A stretch of DNA of 64,000 bases from Candidatus Avigastranaerophilus sp. (GCA_045599645.1 JAZRWI010000089.1:33657-97656); one strand, 5' to 3'; shown: positions 11,491 through 63,458, counted from the first letter of the stretch. Notes: generated by a model from the letters alone, not told the origin. Program-made: numbers and translations.

Positions 11491-11952
11491 CTTGGTATCG
11501 AAGTGTAGCTAGTAAAGCTTTAAGCTCCAAGCTTTAAGCTTTAAGCTCCAAGCTTTAAGCTCCAAGCTATAAGCTATAAGCTTTAAGCTCCAAGCTATAA
11601 GCTATAAGCTATAAGCTCCAAGCTATAAGCTATAAGCTTTAAGCTATAAGCTCCAAGCTATAAGCTATAAGCTATAAGCTCCAAGCTATAAGCTATAAGC
11701 TTTAAGCTCCAAGCTCCAAGCTATAAGCTATAAGCTTTAAGCTCCAAGCTATAAGCTATAAGCTCCAAGCTATAAGCTATAAGCTTTAAGCTATAAGCTC
11801 CAAGCTTCAAGCTTTAGGCTTCCGGCTTCCAGCGGCCTGCTTTCTCGGCCAAGAGCTAAGAGCCAGCAGCCAAAAGCTTATTGCAACAAACCTTATACCC
11901 ACCTGGTATCGAAGCACTGTCCTGCTTCAAGCTTATAGCTTCCAGCTTCCTA
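11491..11952. repeat. Composite element: conserved 30-bp left end, about 45 tandem heptamers (AAGCTNN), about 100-bp core, short second array
   Basis: 11491-11520 is identical to 18126-18155. The array at 11514-11838 uses the units AAGCTTT, AAGCTCC and AAGCTAT. The core at 11832-11930 (..GGCCTGCTTTCTCGGCCAAGAGCTAAGAGCC..AAACCTTATACCCACCTGGTATCGAAGCACTGTCCTGCTTC) is homologous to the cores at 18306-18409 and 18614-18708. Confidence 0.95.
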
Positions 11953-18125: not shown

Positions 18126-18846
18126 CTTGGTATCGAAGTGTAGCTAGTAAAGCTTTAAGCTTTAAGCTATAGGCTCCAAGCCCCAAGCCCCAAGCCCCAA
18201 GCCCCAAGCCCCAAGCTATAAGCTATAGGCCCCAAGCCCCAAGCTATAAGCTATAGGCCCCAAGCCCCAAGCTATAAGCTATAGGCTCCAAGCTTCTAGC
18301 TTCAGGCTTCCGACGGCCTGCTTTCTCGGCCAAGAGCTAAAAGCTAAGAGCCAAAAGCCTATTGAACCAAACCTTATACCCGCTTGGTATCGAAGCACTG
18401 TCCTGCTTCTAGCTTCAAGCTTCAAGCTTTAAGCTATAGGCTCCAAGCTCCAAGCCCCAAGCTCCAAGCTCCAAGCTCCAAGCCCCAAGCCCCAAGCTAT
18501 AAGCTATAGGCCCCAAGCTCCAAGCCCCAAGCTATAAGCTATAGGCTCCAAGCCCCAAGCCCCAAGCTATAAGCTATAAGCTATAGGCTCCAAGCTTCTA
18601 GCTTCTAGCTTCAGGCTTCCGACGGCCTGCTTTCTCGGCCAAGAGCTAAAAGCCAAAAGCCTATTGAACCAAACCTTATACCCGCTTGGTATCGAAGCAC
18701 TGTCCTGCTTCTAGCTTCAAGCTTCAAGCTTTAAGCTATAGGCTCCAAGCCCCAAGCCCCAAGCCCCAAGCTCCAAGCTCCAAGCTCCAAGCTATAGGCT
18801 CCAAGCTTCTAGCTTCTAGCTTCTAGCTTCTAGCTTCAAGCTTATC
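18126..18846. repeat. Composite element: three heptamer arrays separated by two copies of an about 100-bp core
   Basis: The left end at 18126-18155 equals 11491-11520. The arrays lie at about 18149-18310, 18406-18612 and 18705-18846 and use the units CTTTAAG, CTATAAG, CTATAGG, CTCCAAG, CCCCAAG, CTTCTAG and CTTCAAG. The cores lie at 18306-18409 and 18614-18708 and differ by a 7-nt indel. Confidence 0.95.
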
Positions 18847-33375: not shown

Positions 33376-33512
33376 AACTTAGGTATTAAAACTTAGGTAT
33401 TAGGTATTAGGTATTAGGTATTAGGTATTAGGGATTAGGGATTAGGGATTAGGGATTAGGGATTAGGGATTAGGTATTAGGTATTAGGGGTTAGGAGGCC
33501 CCAACCCCTAAT
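33376..33512. repeat. Heptamer array TTAGGTA/TTAGGGA plus 10-bp-stem hairpin between the two adhesin genes
   Basis: It starts directly after the stop at 33373-33375. The order is 2 x AAACTTAGGTATT, then (TTAGGTA)n, then six TTAGGGA units (GGG runs at 33431-33468), then TTAGGTA. The hairpin ATTAGGGGTT..AACCCCTAAT lies at 33483-33512. Confidence 0.95.
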
Positions 33513-39500: not shown

Positions 39501-42500
39501 AAATCTACTGGCGGCTACAGCAACGCTTTTGGTCATAATAATATTGCTTCAGGTCTTTATAGCAGCGTATTTGGTAATGAAAGCCAGTCTATTGCTAATG
39601 GTAGTCTTGCTCTTGGTTATCAGGCTGTTGCAAAGGATGCTAATACTGTTTCCTTTGGTCATGCTGCAGAAGATTTGAATGTCAGTGGCACAGCCTATGG
39701 CACAGATAAGTATAGCAAGCTTGTTTATGTTGCTTCAGGTTCTGTAAATACAGACGCTGTAAACTACGGCCAGATAAAGAGCAGCTTTGCTTCAGCAACC
39801 TATAATGCTGCTGACAACAAGCTTGTTTTGAAGGCTGTAGATGGCACTACCAGTGAGCTCACTATAACAAGTGAAGCTGTAGGCGATGACTTGACTTTGA
39901 TCAAGAATTCCCTCGGCCTGCTTACTGCTAATCCAAACACCATCAACAGCAGCGGTTCAATCGCTATCGGTTCAAAGAACATTTCAGGTACTACAGACAA
40001 TCTTTCAATTGCAATGGGTTTCCAGAATACATCTAATGGCTCTGCTAGCATGGCAATAGGTTCTAATAACTCTGCTATAGCTATGAACTCTTCTGCTGTC
40101 GGCTCATTGAATAAGGCTAATAATCCTTACAGCGCTGCTATGGGTTATAACAATACAGCCGAAGGCACTTATGCTAATGCATTTGGTGTTAACAATACTG
40201 CGAAAGGCCTCAATACTTCGGTTTATGGCTATAATAATACTGTTGAAGGCAGCTTCAGTATGGCTTTTGGTCTGGATAATACTGTTGAAAATACAAATAA
40301 TACGGCATTTGGTTTAAGCAATACCTCTAATGGCAATTATAGTAATGCTTTCGGTTACAACAATGAATCAACAGCCAAGCATTCTAATGCTATTGGTGCT
40401 TACAATGTAGCATCTGCTGAATACAGCCTTGCTTACGGTTATCATAACCTTGCATACAATAAAAGCTCAAGCGCATTTGGTAATGGAAATACTGCAAGGG
40501 GAGATTCTTCCGTTGCTTTCGGTCTTGGCAATAGTACCTTTGCTGTAAATGCCAGTGCCTTGGGTGCAGGCAACAATGCCTATGGACTTATGTCCAGTGC
40601 TATTGGTGTTGTAAACGAAGCCAGCGGAGATTACTCCAATGCTTATGGTGTCAGTAACTATGCTTTGGCAGAAGGCGCCAGCGCATTCGGTTATGTAAAT
40701 GCTGCCTATGGTTTATTTAGTAATGCAATAGGTGCTGAAAACCAGGCATTCGGCAATTTCAGCACAGCCATAGGTTATCAGGCTGTTGCATATGATGATA
40801 ACACAATTTCCTTCGGCCACAGTAAAGGCGATTTGGATCTTGAAGGTAATCCTTATAGCACTGATAGATACAGCAAGCTTGTTTATGTAGCTTCAGGTTC
40901 TGCAAATACCGATGCTGTAAACTACGGCCAGATAAAAGTTGCCAGAGACGGTAAGTATGTTGTAGCAACAGAAACCTTAAGCAATAACATTCTTTCTATT
41001 GATAATGCCATTAATGGAATGAGTACTTACGTAACAGCTTCTGGTCTTAATGCTGCCAGCCAAAAGATTGTTAATGTTGCTGACGGTGTAGATGCCAATG
41101 ATGCTGTAAATGTTAAGCAGATAAGTCTTACCAGTGACGGTATTCATGTAGCAAAAGCCAGTTCTTTGAGCAGTAATATGCTTTCTCTAGATTCTGCTAT
41201 TGGCGATATGAGCAGTTTCAGCACCAGCAACTATTTTGCTAAGAGCTCAAATGTTGCAGACAATATTAAGAGTCTTGATACTGCGATTGGTGATATGAGC
41301 GGCTTCAGCACCAGCAACTATTTTGCCAAGAGTAATACCAGTGTTGCAACCAACCTGAAGAATCTTGATACAGCTATTGGTGAACATACTGCTAGTAGCG
41401 CCGTTCATATAACTTCTGCTGAAAGAGACGCCTGGAATGCTAAGCAGACTGCTCTGAATGCTGACCAGACATTGGCAGTCAATTCCGGTATTACTGCTGA
41501 CATGGTAACAAGGTATAACTCTTATATTACCGCTTCAGGCTTCAATGCAAACAGCAATAAGATCATAAATGTTTCTGCCGGCACATCAGATACGGATGCA
41601 GTTAACTACAGCCAGATAAAGAATGCTTATGTTGGCGTCGCTTACGCTTCAGCAACAAATAAGCTTACTCTGACCAAGGTTAATGGCGAAACAAGTGAAA
41701 TTGAAATTTCCAGTGGAAGCGATGAAGACCTTGCAAGAAAGGTTGAACAGAATAAGCAGGATATCAGCAATAACACTGCAGCTATCAATACCAATACGGA
41801 TAACATCAATAAAAACAAGACCAGTATTGCCAAGAATTCTGATGATATCAAGGCTAATGCTGATAATATCAACAAAAATAAGACCAGTATTGCCAAGAAT
41901 TCTGATGACATCAAGGCCAATGCAGATAACATCAACAAGAACAAAACCAGTATTGCCAAGAATTCTGATGATATCAAGGCCAATGCAGATAACATCAACA
42001 AGAACAAGACTAGTATTGCCAAGAATACTGAAGCTATAAACGCTAATGCCGCAAATATCAGCAAGAACACAACCAATATCAACGCAAATGCTGTTGATAT
42101 TACTAAGATAAAATCAGATCTCGGTATGGTCTCAACCAAGCCGCAGAATCAATCTGATGGTAATGGGTGCATCACTATTGGTTCCGGCAACATTGCCAGT
42201 GGTTCCGGCGCTGTTACCATGGCTATTGGTAGTGACAACAAGGTTTCTGGAGCTAATTCCATAGCTATTGGCTACGGCCACATAATAAACGGCAGCAATT
42301 CTGGCGCCTTTGGTGACCCGACAGACATTGAAGCTGATAATGCCTATGCTATCGGTAACAGCAATAATATCAGCGGTAATGGCAGCTTTATTATTGGTAA
42401 TAACAGCAATATCAGCGGCGCAGGTAGTTTTGTCATGGGCACAAATAGTAAGGTAACTAATGATAGCAGCTTTGTTGTTGGAAGCAATAGCACTGTAAGC

Positions 42501-43298
42501 GGCAAGAACTCAATTGCCATGGGCAGCAATGCCGTTGTTGAACACAATAATGCTGTAGCTCTTGGTGAAGGCTCAAAGACCTATGCAGATAACAGTGTTT
42601 CTGTTGGCACCAAGGAAAAGCAGCGTGTTATCCAGAATGTTGCATCAGGCACTATGGATACAGATGCTGTAAACTACGGCCAGATGAGGGATTATGTTGC
42701 TAATAACAGTACTGGTGCTGCGGATATGAACCAGATTAACAAGAACTTTAACAGACTTGATAACAAGATTAACAGCGTCGGTGCTGGTGCAGCAGCTCTT
42801 GCCAGTCTCAGACCTATTGACAGTGACAAGGATGTTAAGTGGAGCGGCGGTATTGGCTATGGTAATCTCCATGGCAAGTCTGCTGCAGCTGTTGGCGTAT
42901 TCTACAGACCGTCACCTGATGTTGTCTACAGTATTGGCGCCAACGCCGGCGGAGAAGATAACATGGTTAATGCCTCTATCAACTTCGCCTTCGGCCATGT
43001 AGACAGAAAGAAAAATAATCAGACTCAGACTGTTTATAACATCGTTACCCAGAGCAACGAAGAAAATGAAGAAAGGTTTGATTACCTTACAAATGAAAAT
43101 GCGGAATTAAAGGCAAAGGTATCAGAACAGGATTTGAGAATAAAACGTCTGGAACGCCTTATTATAAAGATGTCTGAAAACCAGAAAAATGATGATGATG
43201 ACGACGAAGAAGCCAGACCGTCTGAACGCATACCGCAGAAGCCGTCATGGCCAGCTATAAAATGCTCAGATGGTAAGGCTATGGTGCCGAATATTTAA
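33576..43298 (+). CDS. Second giant trimeric autotransporter adhesin
   Basis: 3240 aa with an AAGGAAG RBS and the signal peptide ..IVAITVALSVFLQTTTVSFA. It has the same head-repeat architecture, with neck junctions at about nt 39640 and 40800. A stalk contains 63-bp tandem repeats. The YadA-type anchor lies at nt 42762-42998 and is followed by a 99-aa tail. Confidence 0.93.
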   Translation: MLCKRKREFNQKFCFKRDLKSRIVAITVALSVFLQTTTVSFAAAPTINNGSGIDSTEAGVDNIAFGDYSSSFGYMNVATGSNSSAFGYKNFSDGSGSVALGFSNLAAGYSAIAVGSGNVVEGYNGTAFGFGNKSLDVYSNAVGASNIAKGEEASAFGFTNQANGGGSNAFGSNNIANGDYSNVFGDSNTADGKESNAIGYNNNATGNNSIAIGSGNTTSLDSSIAVGVSNAASANYASAFGFSNYAKASGSNAFGKGNIASGTFSNAFGVENKAIGNNSSAFGSNNEAVGEKSLAVGYENHSNGLYNSALGYQNYSNGDNSLVAGYGNKANGKNSYVIGFQNIADGETDIALGSFNEVYATDTYVFGSYNYVEEGNNNVALGEYNDILYGENNTLVGHYNSAADGDDNVAVGSNNRTKGNNNIAIGNMNNAVDNSIAIGYQNNYKGYNSSTHRHEFYTPGANSTSVGYKNVATGTNSNAFGYANISTGDNSSAFGNQNTASGSYSSTFGYNNAADGTFSSAIGVGNIALGTEAFAFGSGNDAIGYMSTAMGHHNEVPASYGIAIGYMNKSRDEYGVAIGVYNEANGNISNAIGGYNRAYGELSSAFGRDNVASAANANAFGRNNNAMGENSSAFGYNNTATDSNSSAFGYNNTANGINSSALGSSNTVNGQESTVIGYWSKVTGNASTVVGRASNVTGNNSNAFGYYNVVTASLSSAIGSSNVAKGYISNAVGWSNNANEEGGQAFGGYNTADGNRSSAFGYWNIATGSQSNAFGYYNKVNNNNSNAFGNGNNIYSSSSNAFGRANTASGSYSNAFGSENKTYGSNSNAVGHSNESIGSKSSAFGYDNTATGSNSSAFGYANKAEGSNSNAFGNQNTAGGIYSVAVGYNNSAMNEKSIAFGYGSIASAAYTTAIGYQNKAMDFGSVAIGSGNESYNNHTITMGKNNIATGGVAVGSDNKIIGAIAFGSGNTATGTSGSAIGYNNIAIGERGTAVGYVNKATAGWTTAVGYQNEANGFTSSAFGYKSIANGDYSSAIGKENQALGNSSSAFGNSNTASGSFSNAFGYNNIASASDTNAFGEGNKALGSYSSAFGRSNTSSGSSSTAFGVDNKASAANSHSYGGSNQALGENSNAFGFTNQATGLNSSAFGKENKAIDNNTSAFGLCSVASGTGSNAFGFYDVASGSDSNAFGKSNNALGNSSNAFGGGNTASGGNSSSFGVGNTSSGSDSSAFGFRNQATALNSSAFGKENKAIGLYTSAFGYSNTASGTFGNAFGYGNIASGSDSNAFGKENKALAENSSAFGKGNTASGGSSNAVGSGNQALEGNSNAYGTNNKAKIEYSSAFGCSNTADGKFGNAFGYLNSASGFDSNAFGKENRALSTNSSAYGKGNVASGTSSNAFGLTNVASGDNSNAVGGSNYALYGGGNAFGSGNYASSTNANAFGRDNKVYSPYTDAFGSGNVASGSFANAYGYNNIASGVDSNAFGKDNKALESNSSAYGRSNTAEGIYSNAFGYGNTASGSSSSAVGRENYVVGTESSAFGSGNKAYNSFSSAFGQNNLATGSYTSAFGCQNVASGAKAVAMGIKNVSDGENNVSVGNNNKANNYNSNALGIDNTSSGNKSNAVGVANISTRSESSAFGNNNKAYADYSSAFGHNNTASATYSSAFGHDNTASGSNSSAFGYSNMAASNNSSAFGGKNQATGLNSSAFGLNNIASENYSSSFGQGNSALAGSSSAFGRGNIASGFDSSAFGRENKTMGSDSSAFGRSNTASGSKSVAFGYGNTASGASSIAIGSGNVANDSDGSAFGYNNISTGNNSSAFGYSNNVSGIQSSAFGASNKVTGGLSNAFGYGNIASDTYTSAYGYMNAVEGNNSSAFGYRNTASKATAIGISNISQGGSAALGSNNIATGSSSIAVGLNNKSLAQNTSTFGSDNIVTGNIGNAIGSSNKVSGSSGNSFGSSNEVTSSWSNAFGSKNKSTGGYSNAFGHNNIASGLYSSVFGNESQSIANGSLALGYQAVAKDANTVSFGHAAEDLNVSGTAYGTDKYSKLVYVASGSVNTDAVNYGQIKSSFASATYNAADNKLVLKAVDGTTSELTITSEAVGDDLTLIKNSLGLLTANPNTINSSGSIAIGSKNISGTTDNLSIAMGFQNTSNGSASMAIGSNNSAIAMNSSAVGSLNKANNPYSAAMGYNNTAEGTYANAFGVNNTAKGLNTSVYGYNNTVEGSFSMAFGLDNTVENTNNTAFGLSNTSNGNYSNAFGYNNESTAKHSNAIGAYNVASAEYSLAYGYHNLAYNKSSSAFGNGNTARGDSSVAFGLGNSTFAVNASALGAGNNAYGLMSSAIGVVNEASGDYSNAYGVSNYALAEGASAFGYVNAAYGLFSNAIGAENQAFGNFSTAIGYQAVAYDDNTISFGHSKGDLDLEGNPYSTDRYSKLVYVASGSANTDAVNYGQIKVARDGKYVVATETLSNNILSIDNAINGMSTYVTASGLNAASQKIVNVADGVDANDAVNVKQISLTSDGIHVAKASSLSSNMLSLDSAIGDMSSFSTSNYFAKSSNVADNIKSLDTAIGDMSGFSTSNYFAKSNTSVATNLKNLDTAIGEHTASSAVHITSAERDAWNAKQTALNADQTLAVNSGITADMVTRYNSYITASGFNANSNKIINVSAGTSDTDAVNYSQIKNAYVGVAYASATNKLTLTKVNGETSEIEISSGSDEDLARKVEQNKQDISNNTAAINTNTDNINKNKTSIAKNSDDIKANADNINKNKTSIAKNSDDIKANADNINKNKTSIAKNSDDIKANADNINKNKTSIAKNTEAINANAANISKNTTNINANAVDITKIKSDLGMVSTKPQNQSDGNGCITIGSGNIASGSGAVTMAIGSDNKVSGANSIAIGYGHIINGSNSGAFGDPTDIEADNAYAIGNSNNISGNGSFIIGNNSNISGAGSFVMGTNSKVTNDSSFVVGSNSTVSGKNSIAMGSNAVVEHNNAVALGEGSKTYADNSVSVGTKEKQRVIQNVASGTMDTDAVNYGQMRDYVANNSTGAADMNQINKNFNRLDNKINSVGAGAAALASLRPIDSDKDVKWSGGIGYGNLHGKSAAAVGVFYRPSPDVVYSIGANAGGEDNMVNASINFAFGHVDRKKNNQTQTVYNIVTQSNEENEERFDYLTNENAELKAKVSEQDLRIKRLERLIIKMSENQKNDDDDDEEARPSERIPQKPSWPAIKCSDGKAMVPNI
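41799..42030 (+). repeat. In-frame 63-bp tandem repeat (about 3.5 copies) in the stalk of adhesin 2
   Basis: Copies start at 41799, 41862, 41925 and 41988. Each encodes DNINKNKTSIAKNSDDIKANA. Confidence 0.9.
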
Positions 43299-43348
43299 TT
43301 CATAATTCATAATTCATAATTCATAATTCATAATGCATAATGCATAAT
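43296..43348. repeat. Heptamer array TAATTCA/TAATGCA beginning at the stop codon of adhesin 2
   Basis: (TAATTCA)x5 followed by (TAATGCA)x2, starting with the TAA stop at 43296-43298. Confidence 0.9.
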
Positions 43349-43376
43349 TGATTGTTGATTGATTGGGTTTGGTGTT

Positions 43377-43585
43377 GCTTCGACCAAGTTTGTGCCAATG
43401 CCTGGATTGAGAATTGAAAATTGAGAATTGAGAATTTTTTGTTTTTTTGCTGCTTCGACCAAGTTTGTGCCAATGCCTGGATTGAGAATTGAAAATTGAG
43501 AATTGAGAATTTTTTGTTTTTCTGCTGCTTCGACCAAGTTTGTGCCAATGCCTGGATTGGGTATTGAGAATTGAGAATTTTTGGG
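43377..43585. repeat. 75-bp tandem repeat x3, each containing nested GAGAATT heptamers
   Basis: GCTTCGACCAAGTTTGTGCCAATGCCTGGATTGAGAATTGAAAATTGAGAATTGAGAATTTTTTG.. starts at 43377, 43452 and 43527. Track ORFs 43321..43686(-) and 43328..43624(-) are repeat artefacts. Confidence 0.9.
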
Positions 43586-43664: not shown

Positions 43665-44455
43665 CTATAGAATCACCCCTATACATCCACTGCTATAAAA
43701 TAGGTCTTAGGTCTTAGGTCTTAGGTCTTAGGTCTTAGGTCTTAGGTCTTAGGTCTTAGGTCTTAGGTCTTAGGTTTTAGGGTTCTGGCTTTTCTCGGCG
43801 GTAAGCTGGTGGTCGATAGCTGATGGCTGCTCTTTCTCGGCCAACAGCCAAAACCTAACAGCGTATAAAATCATCCTTATACATCCACTGCTATAGAATA
43901 TATCTGGCTTTCTAGCTTCTAGCTTCTGGCTTTCTGGCTTCTAGCTTCTAGCTTCTAGCTTCTGGCTTTCTGGCTTCTAGCTTCTAGCTTCTAGCTTCTA
44001 GCTTCTAGCTTCTGGCTTTCTAGCTTCTAGCTTCTAGCTTCTAGCTTCTGGCTTTCTAGCTTCTAGCTTCTAGCTTCTAGCTTCTAGCTTCTGGCTTTCT
44101 AGCTTCTAGCTTCTAGCTTCTGGCTTTCTGTCTTCTAGCTTCTAGCTTCTAGCTTCTAGCTTCTAGCTTCTAGCTTCTGGCTTTCTGTCTTCTGGCTTTC
44201 TGTCTTCTGGCTTTCTGTCTTCTGGCTTTCTGACTTCTAGCTTCTGGCTTTCTAGCTTCTGGCTTTCTGGCTTCTGGCTTCTGGCTTCTGGCTTTCTGGC
44301 TTTCTGGCTTCTAGCTTCTAGCTTCTGGCTTTCTGGCTTCTAGCTTCTAGCTTCTAGCTTCTGGCTTTCTAGCTTCTGGCTTTCTAGCTTCTAGCTTCTA
44401 GCTTCTAGCTTCTAGCTTCTAGCTTCTGGCTTTCTGACTTCTAGCTTTCGACTCG
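43665..44455. repeat. Composite element of a second family: 39-bp motif, (GGTCTTA)n array, about 120-bp core, 39-bp motif, about 545-bp array of AGCTTCT/GGCTTTCT units
   Basis: The motif CTATAGAATCACCCCTATACATCCACTGCTATAAAATAG at 43665-43703 recurs at 43863-43901. The GGTCTTA array lies at 43702-43785. The core at 43786-43904 contains CTTTCTCGGCCAACAGCCAAAACC and CCTTATAC, as in the 18-kb cores. The long array at 43905-44448 ends at the -35 box of the glycosyltransferase gene. Confidence 0.95.
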
Positions 44456-44474
44456 CGGCTTGCTGTGCTATAAT
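44447..44474 (+). promoter_or_regulatory. Putative sigma70-type promoter with extended -10, positioned for a leaderless transcript
   Basis: TTCGAC (44447-44452), a 16-nt spacer, then TGcTATAAT (44466-44474). ATG 44481 lies 7 nt after the -10 element. Confidence 0.4.
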
Positions 44475-46949
44475 CTAGGTATGTTAATAGCTAATTTATC
44501 TAGTTCAGTATTGCCTTCACAGAAGGCTAACAGTGTTCAGGTCATGCGTATGAGTGACGCCTTTACCAGATTGGGTCACTCTGTTATTCTTTTTGGCAGA
44601 ATGCCTGATAATGCTGCTGAAAGACTGAATAATACTGCCATAAGAAAATATTACGGCACAAAGGCTGATTTTGATATAAGGCTTGTGCATTGCAGGTTGA
44701 AGGCCAGGTTTTGGTCTGGCTTGGAATACGGTTTTAAAACTTTTTTGTCAGTTTTAAAATTACAAAATATGTCGTTTAAAAAATTACAAACTTCTCGAAA
44801 TTCTTTTTGGGGGCAGCAAGGTGTGTCATTTAAAAAATTACAATCTCCCCAAGGTTTTTTCTGGGTTTGTCGAAATATGTCATTTAAAAAATTACAGTTA
44901 TTTCGAGGTTTATTTGATTTGTTTTATGGGCGCAATCTGTATGCTCTGATGTTTTGTAATTTTTTTAATAAACCAATAATTTATGAAAGTCATGCTTCGC
45001 CATCATGTGGTCGCAAAAAACTTGAAGAATACTTGTTTAACCAGTCGAATTTTGCCGGCCTGGTGGTAATAAACGAAGCTTTGCATGACTACTATAAAGA
45101 AAACTTTAAGATATTCAGAGATTGCCCTGAAAAGCTAATGGTCTGCCCTGATGGCGGTGAAGAAGCTATTGCCAGAGTAGTTGGAGTGGCTAAAAATCCG
45201 GGTAACCACCCTACTGCTGGCTATGCTGGAAGTCTGTATCCTGGTAAAGGCATAGAAATGATTGCAAAGCTGGCTGAAGCAAGACCTGGTGTAAATTTCG
45301 TTGTTGCGGGTGGCACTGCTGAGCAGGTTGGTCTGATGAAACAAAAATGGCCTTTTATAGACTTACAGTTTAAGGGATTTGTAAAACCATCGGAGCTGGC
45401 TAGCTTTTACAATGAATGTGATATTCTGCTGGCGCCCTATCAGCAACAGGTTTACTCAGATGATAATGAAAAGCGTGATTTGTCTAAGTGGATGTCTCCG
45501 TTAAAGATCTTTGAATACATGGGAACCGGGAAGGCGATGATTGTCTCGGATTTGCCGTGCTTCAATGGTATTTTGCGCGATGAGTCAAATGCTTTGCTTG
45601 TTCGCTGTGATGATACTGCCAAATGGCTTGAAGCTATTGATAAACTTATTGCAAACAAAGACTTGTGCAAAAGTCTGAGTAATAAGGCCTATGCTGATTT
45701 ACAAAGCCAATATACCTGGAAGGCCAGGGCTGAAAGAATTATTGCAGGTTTGTATGCTAAGCACATTGAGACCTCAATAGCTTCTTTGCAAAGTGGCAAA
45801 CCAGTAATTTTGCATATCGTGGGTGACCTCAATGTTGGCGGAGCCGAAAGAACGATGCTTAACCTGCTGCCTTTGCTTAATAAAGGCGATTATGAGCATC
45901 GCATACTGACTTTGTTTGAAGAGGGCGCTCTGGCTGATGATTTCAGAAAAGCTGGTATAAACGTAGAAACATTAGGCTTCTCAAAAAGATTTACAGCCTT
46001 TTTGAACCCTTCTAACCTGATAAGGCTGATAAATACAATTAAAGCCCGAAAGCCGCGGCTTATCCAGACCTGGATGTATCATTCCAATAATCTTGTAAAT
46101 GCCTTGCATTGCTTCTTCAAAGAAATACCTGTTGTGAATAATATCCGTCACAATGACCCGAACGCGGGAACGCTTAAAACCTATGCTTCTGCCGTTGCGG
46201 GAGCGATGCCTGCTTGGATGGCGCCAAAAGCTGTTGTGTGCTGCTCTGAGGTGGCAAAAAAGAATCATATTGCCATTGGTTACCCGAAGGATAAGATGGC
46301 TGTGATTCCTAATGGCTTCGTTGTGAAAGGCTTATCAAAGGAAGAAGCCAGGAAAAGCTGTGTGGAAGCTCTGGCTGTGCCGGCTGAAAACAAGCTTGTG
46401 ATTGTTGCTGGCAGATATTGCAGCGAAAAGGATTTTCCGAATTTTGCGGCTGCAGCGTGTTTGATTTTGAAGAATCGTTCCGATGTAACCTTTTTGTTGT
46501 GCGGCAAAGGTTTGGAAGAATCTAATGCTGAGCTTGTTAAGCTACTTGAAAATAACAATGCAAAAGATAATTGCATGCTGCTGGGCCACAGAAACAATAT
46601 AGAAACATTTATGGCGGCCGCTGATTTGCTTGTTTCTGCTTCTGCTTCAGAGGCTTTTCCGAATGTTATTGCTGAGGCAATGTCGGTAGGCACTCCATGT
46701 GTCGGGACTGATGTTGGGGAAACCAGGGCGATAATTGGTGCTGCTGGTCTGGTTGTTCCAGCCAAGAATCCGCAAGCGCTTGCTGACGCTGTTTTGTCTA
46801 TGCTTTCAAATGCTGAAGCATACAATGATTTTGCTTCTAGAACAAAAGCTCATATTGCTGTCAATTACTCGCTGGAAGCCACAGCTAAGCGATATTCTGA
46901 ATTATGGCAACGGATAACAGGATTTATGCGGATAGAGCAGGGCAAATAA
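44460..46949 (+). CDS. Fused double GT4-family glycosyltransferase
   Basis: 829-aa ORF. The likely start is ATG 44481 (MLIANLSS..KANSVQVMRMSDAFTRLGHSV). There are two GT-B/GT4 modules (about aa 8-430 and 445-829), the second with ILHIVGDLNVGGAERT and an E..FPNVIAEAMSVGTPCV motif. The last 13 codons lie inside a repeat element. Confidence 0.85.
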   Translation: MLCYNLGMLIANLSSSVLPSQKANSVQVMRMSDAFTRLGHSVILFGRMPDNAAERLNNTAIRKYYGTKADFDIRLVHCRLKARFWSGLEYGFKTFLSVLKLQNMSFKKLQTSRNSFWGQQGVSFKKLQSPQGFFWVCRNMSFKKLQLFRGLFDLFYGRNLYALMFCNFFNKPIIYESHASPSCGRKKLEEYLFNQSNFAGLVVINEALHDYYKENFKIFRDCPEKLMVCPDGGEEAIARVVGVAKNPGNHPTAGYAGSLYPGKGIEMIAKLAEARPGVNFVVAGGTAEQVGLMKQKWPFIDLQFKGFVKPSELASFYNECDILLAPYQQQVYSDDNEKRDLSKWMSPLKIFEYMGTGKAMIVSDLPCFNGILRDESNALLVRCDDTAKWLEAIDKLIANKDLCKSLSNKAYADLQSQYTWKARAERIIAGLYAKHIETSIASLQSGKPVILHIVGDLNVGGAERTMLNLLPLLNKGDYEHRILTLFEEGALADDFRKAGINVETLGFSKRFTAFLNPSNLIRLINTIKARKPRLIQTWMYHSNNLVNALHCFFKEIPVVNNIRHNDPNAGTLKTYASAVAGAMPAWMAPKAVVCCSEVAKKNHIAIGYPKDKMAVIPNGFVVKGLSKEEARKSCVEALAVPAENKLVIVAGRYCSEKDFPNFAAAACLILKNRSDVTFLLCGKGLEESNAELVKLLENNNAKDNCMLLGHRNNIETFMAAADLLVSASASEAFPNVIAEAMSVGTPCVGTDVGETRAIIGAAGLVVPAKNPQALADAVLSMLSNAEAYNDFASRTKAHIAVNYSLEATAKRYSELWQRITGFMRIEQGK
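44748..44900 (+). repeat. In-frame 54-bp tandem repeat (about 3 copies) inside the first GT4 module
   Basis: Copies start at 44769, 44823 and 44877 ((A/G)TGTC(G/A)TTTAAAAAATTACA(A/G)). A partial copy lies at 44748. The encoded peptide is (M/V)SFKKLQ + 11 aa. Confidence 0.9.
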
Positions 46950-47330
46950 CCGATTTTTTAGCCTCGGTTTAAGTAGGTGTGTGGTTTGCCAGCGTAGGTT
47001 TTTGCTTGGCGAAAGTAAGCAGGAAAACCTCCCTTGGTCCCTCCTTGGGAAGGAGGGTTAGAAGTGAAATAGCCGATGAGCAGGGCAAATAACCGATTTT
47101 TTAGCCTCGGTTTAAGTAGGTGTGTGGTTTGCCAGCGTAGTTTTTTTGCTTGGCGAAAGTTAGCAGGAAAACCTCCCTTGGTCCCTCCTTGGGAAGGAGG
47201 GTTAGAAGAGAAATAGCCGATGAGCAGGGCAAATAACCGATTTTTTAGCCTCGGTTTAAGTAAGTGTGTGGTTTGCCAGCGTAGGTTTTTGCTTGGCGAA
47301 AGTAAGCAGGAAAACCTCCCTTGGTCCCTC
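46935..47330. repeat. 143/144-bp tandem repeat x3 (third copy truncated), each with a GC-rich palindrome
   Basis: Units start at 46935, 47078 and 47222 (GAGCAGGGCAAATAACCGATTTTTTAGCCTCGG..). Each contains CCCTCCTT-GGG-AAGGAGGG. The first unit supplies the last codons and the stop of the glycosyltransferase gene. Track ORFs 46958..47365(-) and 47220..47429(+) are artefacts. Confidence 0.92.
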
Positions 47331-57230: not shown

Positions 57231-58739
57231 TTATTTCGTTTTATCTTCGACCATAGCTTGAATGATAGAATCCATTATCTTTTCTTCCCAAATGTAATTG
57301 CTACTGAATATGCCGGAAGAACGCGGGTCGTTGTCTTCCTCCACTGCCTCGCCATTAACTGTAAATACAAATCCATCCTGAGGTTTAGCAACAAACCTGT
57401 ATGCTCCTGATAATAGGCCATAACATTCTCCGGTATGACCAACCAAATCAACCTGGTATTTTTCACATGCCTTGGCTTTTGTATTTCCATCAATCAACAT
57501 TGTTCCCAAGCCGTATTTCAGCAAAGTGTCACCATAGGTTTTGCCGTTTTGCAGATTTGCATCATAGGTCCACTGGGCTTTACACATTTCTTCGACTGAA
57601 TCTGGCTGGAGTACTTGATATTCATTAAATTTGCCGTTATTTCCAAGCATCATCAGCATATTGCCGATTTCTGGCAAGCTTATTCTCAAACCGCCCTGTG
57701 GTCCAAAACATGATGGGTTTTTCCCAATTTGATATTTATCAAAAGAGTAAACCGTTGAATATTTGCCGGGAAAATCATAAAGAATTGCAAAAAAATTTTT
57801 TGACTCAACAGCATCTTTGTAAGATGGTTTTACCGAAAAATCATCACACTTCGCAAACCAGGAACCATGTTCATTCCAAACATCAAAGTCGTCTGATTTT
57901 TGATATATTGTTGCCAGATTATTGAATTCTGTGTCTTCCATATTCACTGGAATATAGTCTGCTTTGGTATTTAACTGACTTAAAATATGCTTCTTCTGAT
58001 AAATGTCAAAACGTTCTCCGGTTACTCTTTCGATAATGGCTCCCAGGAGTATATAATTCAAGTTAGAGTAACAAAAATAGATTCCAGGTTCTTCTGCTTT
58101 GCTGGCAAAATGGGCACCGTTTTCCCAAAATTTTCCCTTTGGATTAAAACATTCTTTAAGGCTCAAATATGGCGGAGTACTGTAACACTTGCCATCACGT
58201 ATAGAAGAAGTATGGGCTAAAAGCATACGCACAGTTATTGCAACATCTGGAAAATTTGGATTCCGCAGCGAATAACCGAGATATTCGCTAGCATCCGTAT
58301 CAAGCTTAAGTTTCCCTTCTTCTACCAATTGCATAATTGTAATAGCAGTAAATTGTTTGGAAATAGAAGCTATTCTAAATCGCGTATCACGAGTTATCGG
58401 ACGGTCATTGGCCGGATTTTTTTCATCAATATATGCACGGCCTGCAAAGTGGCTATACACTTCTTTCCCGTTTTTATAGACGATTACACCAATTCCTGGA
58501 ACCTTATAATACTCGTTTGTATTGACCATATCATCAAGCTCTTTTGTAAGCTTTTCTGCTGCTGCTGTTGAAAGTTTTGAAGAAGTCTCTGCTGGTTTTA
58601 CAGTATCAGTTTGGCCATACAAAACTGTGCTTGTTAAAAATATTGCTGCTCCGCATAACGAAATAATATTTTTACCGAATAGAATTCTTGGCATTTGTGA
58701 CAACTCCATATTTATCGAATTTATTAAATTATAATACAA
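57231..58739 (-). CDS. Serine hydrolase of the beta-lactamase / PBP (class C-like) family, secreted
   Basis: 502-aa ORF. The probable start is ATG 58694 (MPRILFGKNIISLCGAAIFL.. signal peptide). The S-x-x-K motif is ASISKQF and a YSN motif lies downstream. Confidence 0.85.
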   Translation of the reverse strand: MYYNLINSINMELSQMPRILFGKNIISLCGAAIFLTSTVLYGQTDTVKPAETSSKLSTAAAEKLTKELDDMVNTNEYYKVPGIGVIVYKNGKEVYSHFAGRAYIDEKNPANDRPITRDTRFRIASISKQFTAITIMQLVEEGKLKLDTDASEYLGYSLRNPNFPDVAITVRMLLAHTSSIRDGKCYSTPPYLSLKECFNPKGKFWENGAHFASKAEEPGIYFCYSNLNYILLGAIIERVTGERFDIYQKKHILSQLNTKADYIPVNMEDTEFNNLATIYQKSDDFDVWNEHGSWFAKCDDFSVKPSYKDAVESKNFFAILYDFPGKYSTVYSFDKYQIGKNPSCFGPQGGLRISLPEIGNMLMMLGNNGKFNEYQVLQPDSVEEMCKAQWTYDANLQNGKTYGDTLLKYGLGTMLIDGNTKAKACEKYQVDLVGHTGECYGLLSGAYRFVAKPQDGFVFTVNGEAVEEDNDPRSSGIFSSNYIWEEKIMDSIIQAMVEDKTK

Positions 58740-58824
58740 ATTTCTTTTTACTTAAATTAATAAATTCTGATTTCGGACTATATTCTATATCGCCGAGGGT
58801 CGCCGAGAGCCTACAACATTTTAA

Positions 58825-58853
58825 TTGACTTTGCTTCAGTCACTCACTAGAAT
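58825..58853 (+). promoter_or_regulatory. Putative sigma70 promoter of the SLH-porin gene
   Basis: TTGACT (58825-58830), a 17-nt spacer, then TAGAAT (58848-58853). A GGAG RBS at 58877-58880 and ATG 58890 follow. Confidence 0.55.
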
Positions 58854-58920
58854 AACGCAATTAAATTTTAATATACGGAGTCTGATTTTATGAAAAAATC
58901 CGTTTTTATGCACGCACTAG

Positions 58921-58940
58921 GTGTGTGTGTGTGTGTGTGT
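58921..58940 (+). repeat. (GT)10 dinucleotide tract inside the signal-peptide coding region
   Basis: GTGTGTGTGTGTGTGTGTGT read directly from the sequence. ATG 58890 reads MKKSVFMHALGVCVCVCQ* through the tract. The long ORF continues in the +1 frame. Confidence 0.98.
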
Positions 58941-60513
58941 CAATAGCGCATTAGCGGCACCTTTTTCTGACGTTTCAGCTAATCACTGGGCCTATGATGC
59001 CATAGAAAACCTGGCTTCCAAAGGGTTGCTTCAGGGATTTAATGACAATACCTTCAAGGGGAACAAAACAGCTACCCGCTATGAACTGGCAGTTCTTACT
59101 GCCAAGATGCTTGGCAACGCTGAAGCTGGCGGAGCCTCTGTAAGCAGATCTGACCTTCAGACCCTGGAAAAGCTTACCGTGGAATTTGCAGACGAACTGG
59201 CTTCTCTGGGTGTTAAAGTCACTTCAATCGAAAGTGACATGGCTGCGGTAAAAGAAGATGTTGCCACCCTTAAGGCTGACGTTGCATCAATAAAGGAATG
59301 CAAAAGCCTTTCAAAGGTAAGAATCAGCGGTGATATGCTTGTTGCACATTACAGCGACAAGATGAAAAATCATTCACTGAATAACCATACTGCTCGCACA
59401 CATTTCAGACTGCAGATGGATGCAGACATTGATGAAAACATCTCTGCACGTGCCCGCTTTAAGCTTATCAACGACACAGCCTGGGATGGAAAAAATAAAA
59501 ATACATCTAATGTCGAAATAGCATACCTGAAGATAAAAAATGCTTTCAACTCAGGTGGCGAACTTAAGCTTGGCCGTGATTTCCATACCCATGGTCACGG
59601 TTTTGTAGTTCATGACTACATGGATGCCATCAGCTATTCAAAGAAGTGCGGCAATATAGATTTAACCTTCAACTGCTTCTTTGACCGCAAGAATGACGAA
59701 AATGGCAATGATTACCACAATTTCTGGAACATCAATGCAGACACAGAATACAAAGGTCATAAGCTTTATGCCGGTGTTTATTACAATACTAAAAAATATG
59801 CCGGTGTAGAAGACAGCAAGAAGGAAACCAGAGTGGAATTCGGTTCTTCCGGTAAACTCACTGATAATAAGAAGCTGACCTATGACCTGGCAGGTGTTTA
59901 CAGCGATACCCAGAACACAGGTGCTCTCCTGGATGAAGCCACCAATTATCATAAGCACGAAAGAGGCTGGTTAGCTCACGGAGCAATCAGCTATGATTCT
60001 CTTAAGCAGTTCAATGCAAAGCTTGCCTATACTTTTGTTGATGACGGTTCTAATGCCAATCTCAGCAATGTTAGCAGAAACGACCTTCTCAGAAGATTCG
60101 ATGAACCGGAAACTATTTTTGAAGACCTTGCCTGGTATAATCTCTGTTCTAACAATAAAATGAACTACAAGAACCTTTCCGATATAAAGGTTCAGATTGG
60201 TTATACTCTTAAGAATGCAGACAAACATAGCTTCAGACTTGCATACGATAAGGTTCAGTCCAAGCAGGATGATATTGCTTTTATTTCCAGCGTGAATAGT
60301 CGTATTGCACCGCCTGACTCAATGTGGCATAAGGTTGACTTTGATATGCTGACTTTTGAATATATGTATAAGCTCTCTGAAAATGCCCGTTTGAGAGTTG
60401 TCTATGCAGCCACCAGAGATGACAGTGTTGTAAAACAGGCAACAGCAGCCAGCCCTGCTGTTGAAGCCGATGATCAGCACACTCTTTTCTTTGAAATATA
60501 TAACAGATTCTGA
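58921..60513 (+). CDS. OmpM-like outer-membrane protein (SLH domain, coiled coil, beta-barrel porin), frame-disrupted relative to its natural ATG at 58890
   Basis: The 530-aa track ORF begins inside the GT tract. The SLH motif is FSDVSANHWAYDAIENLASKGLLQGFNDNTFKGNKTATRYELA. A coiled coil follows. The C-terminal 380 aa has alternating-hydrophobic beta-strands and ends in ..FFEIYNRF. The promoter, RBS, ATG and signal peptide lie upstream in another frame. Confidence 0.8.
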   Translation: MCVCVCVNSALAAPFSDVSANHWAYDAIENLASKGLLQGFNDNTFKGNKTATRYELAVLTAKMLGNAEAGGASVSRSDLQTLEKLTVEFADELASLGVKVTSIESDMAAVKEDVATLKADVASIKECKSLSKVRISGDMLVAHYSDKMKNHSLNNHTARTHFRLQMDADIDENISARARFKLINDTAWDGKNKNTSNVEIAYLKIKNAFNSGGELKLGRDFHTHGHGFVVHDYMDAISYSKKCGNIDLTFNCFFDRKNDENGNDYHNFWNINADTEYKGHKLYAGVYYNTKKYAGVEDSKKETRVEFGSSGKLTDNKKLTYDLAGVYSDTQNTGALLDEATNYHKHERGWLAHGAISYDSLKQFNAKLAYTFVDDGSNANLSNVSRNDLLRRFDEPETIFEDLAWYNLCSNNKMNYKNLSDIKVQIGYTLKNADKHSFRLAYDKVQSKQDDIAFISSVNSRIAPPDSMWHKVDFDMLTFEYMYKLSENARLRVVYAATRDDSVVKQATAASPAVEADDQHTLFFEIYNRF

Positions 60514-60529: not shown

Positions 60530-62104
60530 ATGAAAAAATACATTTTATCAATATTAGTCCTCGTGACCGTGATACTGGCAGCAGTTGGCTGCAGCTCACA
60601 CAGCGGTTTCGGCGGCAATCCTTCCAGCGTAGGTCCTGTCCCGGACCCGACACCTACATCAATTCCCGTTCCAACTCAAGTGAGTGCTGCATATGACCAT
60701 AATCAGAAAATGCTTGAAGCCAGTTGGTCGTGGAATTGGGACGGTGGAACATATCAGAATGTTTCTTATACTGTAATAATAAGGGATTCAAATGATCAGG
60801 AATTTGGAAAAATAGAAAATATATCTGATTGTTTCTGTGATAGTTCAAATACTGATTTGACATTTCCAGCGGGCGACTATAATCTTAATGTAATCGCCGT
60901 CGTAGACGGTCAGAAATCTGAAGAATCAGAAACTGCTGATTTTAATGTTGGTCTTGCTCCAGCAGAACCCATAATTGATAATACGTCTGTTGATGTTTTA
61001 ACGAAACATCGGCCGACTATAACCTGGAAGCCAGGGAACGAGGCTCCGGGAGTAACTTATCATATAAGCTTAAAAGACAATTCAGGGAATATCGTTGATA
61101 GTTGCTCAACTGAAACTCTTGTCTGGAATTCATCAAAATCTATTGATGGCGCACATGAATTCGATATATATGCAGAAAATATTTATGGGAAATCAACTAC
61201 TGCCGTCTATAAATTTACAGTTAAGTTCTGGGAAGGTGATGGAACTCAGTCTAAGCCATATATTATAGCTGACGCTGAACATCTGGACAATGTCAGAGAT
61301 TATCTTAATACTGAAAATGTATATTTTAAGCAAACTAACGACATTGATTTAACTGAATATATTGCCAGTAATTATCCTGACGGCGGTTGGATGCCTATAG
61401 GGGATTATTCAAATACATTTAAAGGGTATTATGATGGTGGCAATAAAAAAATCTCTGGCTTTACTATAAATAGAACTAGCACTGATGATGTTGGTTTATT
61501 TGGTCGTTGCCAAGGCACTTTGAGCAATATAATAATGTATAAACCAATGGTTGAAGGGAGTATTAACGTAGGTGCTTTATCTGGTTCTGCTTTTAATGGT
61601 GAATTTAATCAATGTTGTGTAATCGATGGTTCAGTAAAAGGTGTATCAGAGTGTGGTTTACTTGTTGGAGTCTGTATGGCACACTTCAATGAATGCTTTA
61701 CAAGTGGCGGTAGTATTATAGCTTTAAAAACTGCTGGCGGTTTAATAGGGTTTACAAATAATTCAGATAATGAAATTACAAATTGTTATTCCAGTGGCGT
61801 TACTATTAGTTGTGACGAACGTTCTGCAGGTCTTTGCGGGGAATCATATCGGGCAGATTCTAAGATAACTAATTCGTATTCGGCAAATACCGTAAATTGT
61901 AGTGGTAGTAAAGGGGCTTTTGTTTATGATTCTTCCTCCTTTATTAATATTAGTGATTGCTTTACTACAGAAGAAGGCAATTTGAAAAGCGGTTGCATAA
62001 AAGCCTCTAAATATAGTGAAACAGGTTATTCCTGGGATAGCGATATTTGGGATTTGAGCAAGGATCTGCCAACCCTCAGATGGTATGACAATCTAGGCTA
62101 CTAA
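60530..62104 (+). CDS. Lipoprotein with Ig/Fn3-like repeats and C-terminal GLUG-motif repeats
   Basis: 524 aa with the lipobox LAAVGC. Two repeats of about 90 aa follow. The C-terminus has repeated hydrophobic-Gly motifs (VGLFGRC, VGALSGS, CGLLVGV, AGGLIGF, SAGLCGE) typical of GLUG domains. The gene starts 17 nt after the porin gene. Confidence 0.75.
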   Translation: MKKYILSILVLVTVILAAVGCSSHSGFGGNPSSVGPVPDPTPTSIPVPTQVSAAYDHNQKMLEASWSWNWDGGTYQNVSYTVIIRDSNDQEFGKIENISDCFCDSSNTDLTFPAGDYNLNVIAVVDGQKSEESETADFNVGLAPAEPIIDNTSVDVLTKHRPTITWKPGNEAPGVTYHISLKDNSGNIVDSCSTETLVWNSSKSIDGAHEFDIYAENIYGKSTTAVYKFTVKFWEGDGTQSKPYIIADAEHLDNVRDYLNTENVYFKQTNDIDLTEYIASNYPDGGWMPIGDYSNTFKGYYDGGNKKISGFTINRTSTDDVGLFGRCQGTLSNIIMYKPMVEGSINVGALSGSAFNGEFNQCCVIDGSVKGVSECGLLVGVCMAHFNECFTSGGSIIALKTAGGLIGFTNNSDNEITNCYSSGVTISCDERSAGLCGESYRADSKITNSYSANTVNCSGSKGAFVYDSSSFINISDCFTTEEGNLKSGCIKASKYSETGYSWDSDIWDLSKDLPTLRWYDNLGY

Positions 62105-62134: not shown

Positions 62135-62172
62135 AAAACTCCGCAGAGCTTTTCCATTTGCGGAGTTTTTTT
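62135..62172 (+). terminator. Rho-independent terminator after the lipoprotein gene
   Basis: AAAACTCCGCA-13 nt-TGCGGAGTTTT followed by a T run. Confidence 0.8.
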
Positions 62173-62174
62173 CT

Positions 62175-62289
62175 AGCAAATTGCCGAATGATTTTCAGCC
62201 AAATTGCTGAATGATTTTTAGCCAAATTGCCGAATGATTTTCAGCCAAAACGCCGAAAAATATTTGACCAAAACGATGAATGATTCTTA
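62175..62289. repeat. Five tandem copies of an about 23-bp unit
   Basis: AGC(C)AAATTGCCGAATGATTTTC occurs three times nearly perfectly, followed by two degenerate copies. The array lies between convergent genes. Confidence 0.85.
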
Positions 62290-62309
62290 ACACAAAGTTA
62301 AATATATTA

Positions 62310-62630
62310 TTAAATAATTTCTAATTGCTGCTTTAACAGTAACAGATCCTTCTTTGATGTTTGCCAGATTATTCTATAATCTGTTCTCATATATTCGTGA
62401 ACAATAATATTTCTCATAGCAATTATTGTTGCCCACGGAATTTGCGGATACTTATCCTTAAAATCCTTTGTTATTCTAGCTGAAGCCTCACCAATAATCA
62501 TAAAGTGATATGAAACCATTTCTTGTTTTTCTATAGAATTTATAAAAGCTTCATAGCTGCAGTCTGTAATTTCTATTATTCTTGCTATTGATTTTAAAAT
62601 ATCTTCTATTCTTGTTTTATTATCTATCAT
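62310..62630 (-). CDS. hepT: HepT-family (DUF86/HEPN) toxin
   Basis: 106 aa with the R-x4-H-x-Y motif (RNIIVHEY). It overlaps the upstream MNT gene by 4 nt. Confidence 0.88.
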   Translation of the reverse strand: MIDNKTRIEDILKSIARIIEITDCSYEAFINSIEKQEMVSYHFMIIGEASARITKDFKDKYPQIPWATIIAMRNIIVHEYMRTDYRIIWQTSKKDLLLLKQQLEII

Positions 62631-63034
62631 AATAAAATCATGTCTTTCTTTACTGATTGATCAAAATACTCGTTTTTTAAAGCAGCATAAGAAATTACAT
62701 CCACATTGCAAGAAAACAGGTTTGATAAATCAATAATCATATTAGCCTGATCAAAAAGTGAAGCATTTTCATTAAAACAAGCCAGGAAATCTATGTCACT
62801 ATTTGGTTTTTCCTCTTTCCGTGCGCAAGAGCCAAATACATAAACCTTATCAGCGTTGTATTTGTTAGCTATCTGATAAATATTTGCTTTTTTATTTAAT
62901 ATTTCATCTAACTTACACATATTTGTAACCTTGCCAATACATTGTATTGAAGGACATTTTAAATTATTTTCACTTTCTAATATCATTATACCCATTTTAT
63001 TCAAATAGAGCAATAATACTACTTTACTAATCAA
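62627..63034 (-). CDS. mntA: MNT-family nucleotidyltransferase antitoxin
   Basis: The motif G-S-x-x-R .. D-x-D is present (VFGSCARKEEKPNSDIDF). The probable true start is ATG 62920 (98 aa, AAGG RBS). The longer track ORF adds an implausible hydrophobic extension. Confidence 0.85.
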   Translation of the reverse strand: MISKVVLLLYLNKMGIMILESENNLKCPSIQCIGKVTNMCKLDEILNKKANIYQIANKYNADKVYVFGSCARKEEKPNSDIDFLACFNENASLFDQANMIIDLSNLFSCNVDVISYAALKNEYFDQSVKKDMILL

Positions 63035-63458
63035 AGAAAGCTGAAAGCTGCGGGTATCGGGTTAAAATATGGTCTTTGGTGAATATTTCGAAGCCGTCGT
63101 GTCAGAAGCGGGGAACGGTGATAGCAGTAATTTGTATTGCCTGCTTCCAAAATCCTCATTCATTATGAAAATTTATTGGATCTATCCTACATCGCTTCCC
63201 AGTCAGCATTGAGATTATATCATTTTTCAGACAATCAATATTCATGCCAATATCATCTCTAAGCACCTCAAAGATATCTGTTCCTGTCCAATAGTTTCCG
63301 TATTCATGACTTAGTTACTAGCGAACAGCCTTTTCCGGTCCGTGGTTTTTTTTATTCTCTTACCTCTTATACTATTCTACTCGAAAAACTTTTCAATTCC
63401 AATTTTTTTTCGAGTAGAACCTTATGCCCCTTATGCCTGCATAGTTTTCCTGACCTTT

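Follow-up and report, generated by a model that had tools for sequence, protein, structure and literature searches.

A GT repeat in the signal-peptide codons of an OmpM-type porin gene, a candidate slipped-strand switch in a probable gut Riflebacterium

The stretch of DNA analysed here (the window) comprises 64,000 nt deposited as Candidatus Avigastranaerophilus sp. (GCA_045599645.1 JAZRWI010000089.1:33657-97656), and all coordinates given below are positions in it, the part displayed being 58,854-60,513. It carries a gene for an OmpM-type outer-membrane porin whose signal-peptide codons contain a run of ten GT dinucleotides, (GT)10, with the start codon and the body of the gene lying in different reading frames. 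The features of this gene are the following:

58825..58853, plus strand: putative sigma-70-type promoter (-35 TTGACT at 58825-58830, 17-nt spacer, -10 TAGAAT at 58848-58853)
58877..58880, plus strand: ribosome-binding site GGAG, 9 nt upstream of the ATG, read from the sequence (CGGAG is invariant in all orthologues)
58890..58946, plus strand: true start ATG 58890 and the 18-codon dead-end frame (MKKSVFMHALGVCVCVCQ) that follows it in the (GT)10 state
58921..58940, plus strand: (GT)10 microsatellite, the proposed slipped-strand switch, which in frame encodes (Val-Cys)n in the hydrophobic core of the signal peptide
58942..60513, plus strand: OmpM-like gene body, from the signal-peptide end NSALA through the mature protein to the TGA stop, intact in the +1 frame (list of open reading frames)
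58952..58954, plus strand: TAG stop in the third frame, which ends the (GT)6, (GT)9 and (GT)12 class of OFF lengths after 18-22 codons (in-silico series)
58960..59091, plus strand: SLH domain, the peptidoglycan-binding head (PF00395, E = 3e-11, residues 25-68 of the restored precursor)
59146..59295, plus strand: helical (coiled-coil) stalk between SLH domain and barrel (AlphaFold2 helices 69-81, 83-88 and 96-118, mature numbering)
59317..60507, plus strand: C-terminal outer-membrane beta-barrel, with about 18 strands in the model (AlphaFold2, Foldseek)

The start of the gene is well defined. The full-length orthologues P0001 and P0002 are annotated from the codon that matches ATG 58890 in the alignment, and a DNA alignment showed that the -35 element, the ribosome-binding site and the ATG are conserved between the tract-bearing gene and orthologues that look expressed. 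The -35 region ATTGACTT was unchanged in all seven aligned orthologous loci, and the -10 element reads TAGACT in L006, the only other locus found to carry the tract. The sequence TTGACT-17-TAGAAT was the best sigma-70-like match (10/12) between 58500 and 62400; it is a match to the consensus and hence a putative promoter, the number of such matches in that interval being no higher than in shuffled sequences. The NCBI product of the window (P0122, 528 aa), to which the product of the gene body is 100% identical, is annotated from GTG 58927 inside the GT tract, and P0124, its counterpart in L006 (GCA_045601105.1), has the same start. Initiation at in-tract GTG codons was rejected, as these have no ribosome-binding site and would yield an uncharged pre-sequence of 12 residues. 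The annotated start is an artefact; it leaves the true ATG and signal peptide out of view and masks the frameshift.

Tandem Repeats Finder reported the tract as a perfect repeat (58921-58940; period 2, 10.0 copies, 100% matches). The frame of ATG 58890 reads MKKSVFMHALGVCVCVCQ and then meets TAG 58944-58946, while the SLH/stalk/beta-barrel frame of 523 codons runs on past the tract in the +1 frame; the long open reading frame listed at 58921..60513 (530 aa) is this +1 frame relative to ATG 58890. When the tract length was varied in silico from 5 to 14 units, 5, 8, 11 and 14 GT units gave full-length products of 537-543 aa, and every other count gave peptides of 16-22 aa, because both wrong frames hit a TAG (58944 or 58952) right after the tract. 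The repeat number thus toggles the frame as in a translational contingency locus based on a simple sequence repeat, and ten perfect units form a repeat of the kind that such loci contain, exceeding the length threshold of 6-8 units for dinucleotides in PhasomeIt (PMC5953494).

Whether the restored N-terminus is a Sec signal peptide was judged from hydropathy and from the alignment with orthologues. As sequenced, no Sec signal peptide stands in frame with the OmpM protein; one is present only at 5, 8, 11 and 14 units. The restored precursor matches the orthologues residue for residue in the alignment, with cleavage predicted between Ala and Ala-Pro (after NSALA, before AP). The Val-Cys repeat has a hydropathy of 2.4-2.5, compared with 2.0-2.5 in orthologue signal peptides, so that gaining or losing three units at a time should do no harm. 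A lipoprotein reading of this signal peptide was rejected by eye, no Cys being preceded by a canonical lipobox. The original prediction, made from the sequence alone, had described the promoter, ribosome-binding site, ATG, (GT)10 run, TAG at 58944 and +1 reading frame, and each of these statements was verified; its proposal that adding one unit or removing two restores a Sec precursor was likewise confirmed by the in-silico series and the orthologue alignment.

The gene product is a genuine OmpM-type tether and porin. It has a single N-terminal SLH domain (PF00395), followed by a stalk that AlphaFold2 built as helices within residues 69-118 and that aligns with the stalks of SlpA and OmpM1, and by a porin-type C-terminal barrel recognised in the model and by Foldseek. 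The AlphaFold2 model, built from 57 homologues (mean pLDDT 79.6), placed a helical stalk between an SLH head and a barrel with about 18 strands. Foldseek searches of the PDB returned the Campylobacter jejuni MOMP, AlgE, OprD-family porins and Veillonella parvula OmpM1, all at E of about 1e-13. In sequence searches the SLH domain, the stalk and the first part of the barrel matched Deinococcus radiodurans SlpA (E = 4.5e-18) and V. parvula OmpM1 (E = 1.2e-17). The protein is thus like V. parvula OmpM1 (PDB 8BYS, 8BYM, 8BYT) and D. radiodurans SlpA (PDB 7ZGX) in joining a single SLH domain, a helical stalk and a porin barrel. The structural match to OmpM1 has a Foldseek E of about 4e-13, but identity in the barrel is only about 13%, and the model of about 18 strands fits the 18-stranded MOMP, AlgE and OprD at least as well. 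The earlier description of an OmpM-like SLH porin was therefore borne out by PF00395, the SlpA and OmpM1 alignments, AlphaFold2 and Foldseek. OmpM-type proteins are described as the main outer-membrane tether of diderm Terrabacteria, Veillonella without any OmpM copy suffers detachment of the membrane, and OmpM homologues have previously been reported in Riflebacteria (bioRxiv 10.1101/2021.05.31.446380).

All named homologues came from metagenome-assembled genomes of Candidatus Riflebacteria or Ozemobacteraceae, many of them from rumen, goat or reindeer, and the host of the tract-bearing gene is thus probably a rumen or gut Riflebacterium. Related genomes contain from 2 to at least 5 OmpM loci each. 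With several OmpM paralogues in related genomes, one OFF copy should be tolerable. No second OmpM copy and no shufflon recombinase were found within the 64-kb window.

The (GT)10 tract far exceeds what chance would produce. Heptamer arrays aside, the window contains no other microsatellite, and a search for GT 12-mers with one mismatch allowed found five overlapping instances, compared with 0.2 in shuffled sequences, none of which reached five. The history of the tract was read from orthologues set by synteny (loci L003-L005), in which genes for a STAS protein, a SpoIIE phosphatase and, on the minus strand, a beta-lactamase-family protein precede the porin gene. These loci and the closer L001 and L002 encode MKKSVLMCVLGLCACTSGAFA followed by AS, with no repeat. 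At the site of the tract the orthologues, at 84-91% identity, carry GTTTATGCGCCTGCAC, which in the DNA alignment is exactly 4 nt shorter than the 20-nt GT run, and (GT)8 is therefore the ancestral in-frame length; its product (539 aa) has the length of P0002, and it reproduces the orthologous spacing exactly. On the scale of synonymous divergence (dS), the microsatellite is younger than the separation from the L001 lineage (dS 0.42) and older than that of the window from L006 (dS 0.06).

In the whole protein collection only P0122 (window) and P0124 (L006) bear the tract, so that the allele sample is two genomes. The L006 tract is also (GT)10 and out of frame (L006 267-286). The two porin genes differ at 30 of 1569 nt, the flanks diverge upstream of a point 72 nt ahead of the ATG, and L006 has no counterpart of the toxin-antitoxin insert found downstream in the window; L006 is an independent strain. 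This bears on the idea of an assembly or consensus error, under which the true repeat number, such as (GT)11, would keep the frame and expression would be constant. PCR stutter affects dinucleotide runs and both sequences are metagenome-assembled, which would favour such an error; however, the same count was obtained in two independent assemblies that have diverged by 1.9% in the gene and differ in upstream flank and lipoprotein allele, and a 20-nt tract lies well inside read and k-mer length. Stutter, moreover, seldom overturns a consensus. We regard an error in both assemblies as very improbable.

The same pair of alleles allowed selection to be assessed. Their differences comprise 19 synonymous and 11 non-synonymous changes, with 18 of the 30 at third codon positions, and the ratio of non-synonymous to synonymous rates (dN/dS) is 0.158. 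A simulation with the observed transition bias gave a neutral expectation of 29% synonymous changes (binomial p = 1.1e-4), and the family baseline against tract-free orthologues is a dN/dS of 0.10-0.12. No further stop or indel was present in either allele. Constraint on the tract-bearing alleles is barely relaxed, and with 0.158 against a baseline of 0.10-0.12 the gene shows the combination of an intact OFF allele and purifying selection that is looked for in a repeat-based contingency locus; neither the ratio nor the lack of extra lesions is that of a decaying pseudogene. Since the differences between the window and L006 are not neutral (dN/dS 0.158, p = 1.1e-4, no further lesions), a gene dead since their common ancestor was rejected.

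Recent loss of the gene is harder to dismiss, although we consider it rather unlikely. Under non-adaptive pseudogenisation, cryptically simple signal-peptide codons became a GT microsatellite, a redundant OmpM paralogue was knocked out by expansion from (GT)8 to (GT)10, and the gene is now decaying, with no selection to revert. This would agree with two known alleles that are both OFF at equal length, with the lack of an ON allele in any collection searched, with a tract that is lineage-specific and exactly 4 nt longer than in orthologues, with the several OmpM paralogues of related genomes, and with the NCBI annotation of P0122 from an artefactual in-tract GTG. However, a (GT)10 shared from the ancestor in a dead gene predicts neutrality, which is at odds with the ratio and the absence of stops and indels given above, and pseudogenisation survives only if inactivation was recent and independent in both lineages or if the 5' end was exchanged by recombination. 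Either rescue implies a mutable tract and so comes near the switch model minus its adaptive part. The alleles thus point to one of three histories, namely frequent flipping of the tract, recent independent loss of frame in both lineages, or 5'-end recombination, none of which is possible unless the tract is mutable or the population contains functional alleles. The original prediction had proposed that a tract fixed out of frame in related strains would mark a dead pseudogene; both known alleles are out of frame and yet under purifying selection, so this rule was too simple.

Purifying selection on out-of-frame alleles could also be explained if the frame were restored during expression, by ribosomal -2/+1 slippage on (GU)10 or by transcriptional slippage, giving a constant low level of protein and no switch in the DNA. 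A dinucleotide repeat would let the Val and Cys tRNAs re-pair perfectly 2 nt away. On the other hand, no RNA fold that could stimulate frameshifting was found in the vicinity of the tract or beyond it (minimum free energy z-score -0.31) and no Rfam match in the window, and the orthologues, which have no tract and are plainly in frame, show that this is not a conserved recoding site. The tract therefore does not look like a programmed frameshift site, and we know of no established bacterial mechanism for efficient -2 frameshifting on GU repeats. Slippage during expression seems to us most unlikely.

The best-supported model is a slipped-strand translational contingency switch that is OFF in both consensus assemblies, because both the anatomy of the locus and the selection signal fit it; we give it about an even chance of being correct. 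What is established is the tract, the way in which it sets the frame, an identified and intact gene, and purifying selection on the tract-bearing alleles. From there the model supposes that GT units would be gained and lost by replication slippage at a useful rate, as is generally expected of repeats of this type. With 8, 11 or 14 units ATG 58890 would be in frame and would yield the Sec precursor MKKSVFMHALG(VC)nVNSALA, cleaved before AP; this ON precursor would be exported and processed, and the SLH-stalk-barrel protein would be inserted in the outer membrane. With other counts translation would halt 4-14 nt past the tract, no exportable protein would be made, and expression of the downstream lipoprotein gene would probably be lowered by polarity. 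Both sampled populations would then be mostly (GT)10, one unit short of the (GT)11 ON state, and ON cells would exist, switching being adaptive, for example against porin-targeting phage or host factors. We also counted in favour of the switch the shufflon-like inverted pairs, adjacent to a tyrosine recombinase gene, that occur in another OmpM paralogue group of related rumen Riflebacteria, which suggest that porin variation is under selection in the lineage.

Several observations weigh against the switch. The allele is known from only two genomes, both with 10 units and out of frame, and no length polymorphism was observed. No in-frame allele was found among about 15 billion catalogued proteins. 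Scans of JGI metagenome contigs gave no match when exact DNA was used (upstream flank plus GTGTGT) and nothing above 48% identity when guided by protein; GTDB representatives gave only paralogues at 48% identity or less, the species of the window itself not being returned; and a search with the N-terminal 184 aa for fragments with other tract lengths gave a best match of 62% identity. In addition, the tract is of recent origin and is not found in orthologues with 84-91% identity, and no comparable repeat occurs at other OmpM loci of the phylum, so that there is no sign of a lineage-wide repeat strategy: the signal-peptide codons of other OmpM paralogues contained no repeat, and 482 kb of related Riflebacteria OmpM loci contained no dinucleotide run of more than 6 units. 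Long dinucleotide tracts may also stay fixed, as none varied in Neisseria (PMC5953494), and the selection signal could be partly older than a recent inactivation. Look-ups of exact proteins (P0122, the GLUG lipoprotein and the SpoIIE phosphatase) placed the locus in no further sample on record. The phase-variation switch put forward in the original prediction is therefore upheld in part: the tract falls within the codons for the hydrophobic signal-peptide core, an architecture that does fit the classic slipped-strand layout invoked there, and the selection signal agrees, but a change in repeat number was not seen, both genomes being (GT)10.

The closest parallel is with Helicobacter pylori, in which oipA (hopH), hopZ, sabA, sabB and babB carry CT repeats in their signal-peptide codons (PMC10564699). 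The locus described here resembles oipA in having a dinucleotide repeat in the 5' signal-peptide codons of an outer-membrane protein gene and in a repeat count that sets the frame, with On and Off alleles in a gene that is otherwise intact; in both, the C-terminal part of the signal peptide is a marker of the in-frame state (PMC10564699). It differs in its unit (GT instead of CT), in its host, which is an uncultivated gut organism and probably one of the Riflebacteria, in its product, an SLH-anchored OmpM tether and porin instead of a Hop-family adhesin, and in its sampling, since many repeat patterns are known across hundreds of H. pylori strains, compared with two identical alleles here. The opa genes of Neisseria are also similar, as the hydrophobic stretch of the signal peptide is encoded by the repeat in members of a multi-copy outer-membrane family and frame changes switch single paralogues on or off (PMC5953494, with general background). 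In opa, however, the unit is a CTCTT pentamer in the leader-peptide codons, the repeat is present in every paralogue and switching was shown experimentally, whereas here the unit is GT, one paralogue in one lineage has it and the switch is a candidate. No paper linking OmpM to phase variation was found in the library of papers searched. As a candidate, the locus would thus combine a known switch mechanism with a protein family and a phylum that are new for it. If the switch is real, the cell would handle single OmpM paralogues as exposed and expendable surface antigens or phage receptors, beyond their structural role, and repeat-based contingency loci would arise de novo in an uncultivated gut phylum as well as in the well-studied pathogens.

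A different, shufflon-like arrangement of OmpM genes was seen in related rumen or gut genomes. In locus L014 (1-4533) a tyrosine recombinase gene (PF00589) accompanies two OmpM genes, one full-length and on the minus strand, the other a 5'-truncated copy on the plus strand that starts at a conserved NVTRYQLAMITAKM motif. An inverted repeat of 303 nt (94%) begins at the truncation point and flanks the recombinase gene, another spans 203 nt (92%), and the barrels of the two OmpM copies are only 71% identical. Recombinases 77-83% identical to that of L014 stand beside OmpM genes in four further loci (L008, L015, L162 and L163). Insertion of a mobile element is a rival explanation for the shufflon-like layout, and L163 also has an IS200-like gene. 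It is tempting, though at present doubtful, to propose that gut and rumen Riflebacteria vary their OmpM tether/porins by at least two programmed routes, the GT frame switch and a recombinase-driven exchange of barrel cassettes; in the second, the tyrosine recombinase would swap cassettes between a gene that is expressed and a silent one truncated at its 5' end, with L014 as the example. Were this so, an outer-membrane tether would for the first time be known to vary by phase or antigenically, and this uncultivated phylum of diderm Terrabacteria would have its first described contingency locus.

Downstream of the porin gene lie two further features:

60530..62104, plus strand: lipoprotein gene with its own GGAG, a lipobox (AAVGC) and a borderline GLUG motif
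62194..62221, plus strand: terminator-like hairpin and T-run, the likely end of the operon (consensus scan)

The porin stop (60511-60513) and the lipoprotein ATG (60530) are separated by a gap of 16 nt. A GLUG lipoprotein 17 nt downstream had been predicted; the ATG does start 17 nt past the stop, the gap itself being 16 nt, and the GLUG match to Pfam is borderline (20.7 bits, cut-off 20.5). The two genes probably form an operon, in which the lipoprotein gene would probably be subject to polarity when the porin is OFF. The lipoprotein gene is mosaic between the two strains (window 60530-62104, 524 aa; L006 1876-4968, 1030 aa): the first ~86 nt are near-identical, the last ~890 nt are 81% identical and the middle has been replaced. 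Its product looks like a hypervariable surface protein. Past the operon the window has a 23-nt tandem repeat (3.9 copies, 62169-62257) and a HepT/MNT toxin-antitoxin pair encoded on the minus strand (62310-63034); about 57 nt stand in L006 in place of this whole segment (62169-63434).

Homology between the two strains begins just upstream of the porin -35, and further upstream the window has the beta-lactamase-family neighbour, which is not in L006. A comparison of the upstream flank (L006 1-170 with window 58650-58818 and 63426-63449) revealed a sequence of 19-27 nt, CCTGCATAGTTTTCTTG, at the start of L006 and again past the operon (L006 5092-5110; window 63426-63449). These copies would mean either that the porin-lipoprotein module lies between short direct repeats or that a repeat interrupted the contig. 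At 58790-58809, 16 nt upstream of the porin -35, the window has a direct repeat of 10 nt (TCGCCGAGGG TCGCCGAGAG); it is not in L006, whose flank diverges there.

Elsewhere the window encodes two giant trimeric autotransporter adhesins in tandem, at 18988-33375 (plus strand, 4795 aa) and 33576-43298 (plus strand, 3240 aa), with YadA head repeats, stalk and membrane anchor (Pfam) and internal repeats of 42 nt or 84 nt. Long arrays of 7-nt units, mostly imperfect, occupy the intergenic regions before and after both adhesin genes and before a glycosyltransferase gene:

11515-11799, 18150-18843, 33373-33495, 43296-43349, 43376-43579, 43701-43781 and 43910-44447: heptamer arrays

Examples are AAGCTAT (40 copies), TTCTAGC (74 copies), a perfect TAGGTCT (10 copies) and TTAGGGA/TTAGGTA (15 copies), and L001 has similar heptamers (~330-400) ahead of its orthologous porin promoter. 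These arrays recall the 7-bp repeats found upstream of the hmw adhesin genes of Haemophilus influenzae. Lastly, a 144-nt tandem repeat (2.8 copies, 96% matches) extends from the 3' end of the glycosyltransferase reading frame (44460-46949) downstream, at 46935-47330.

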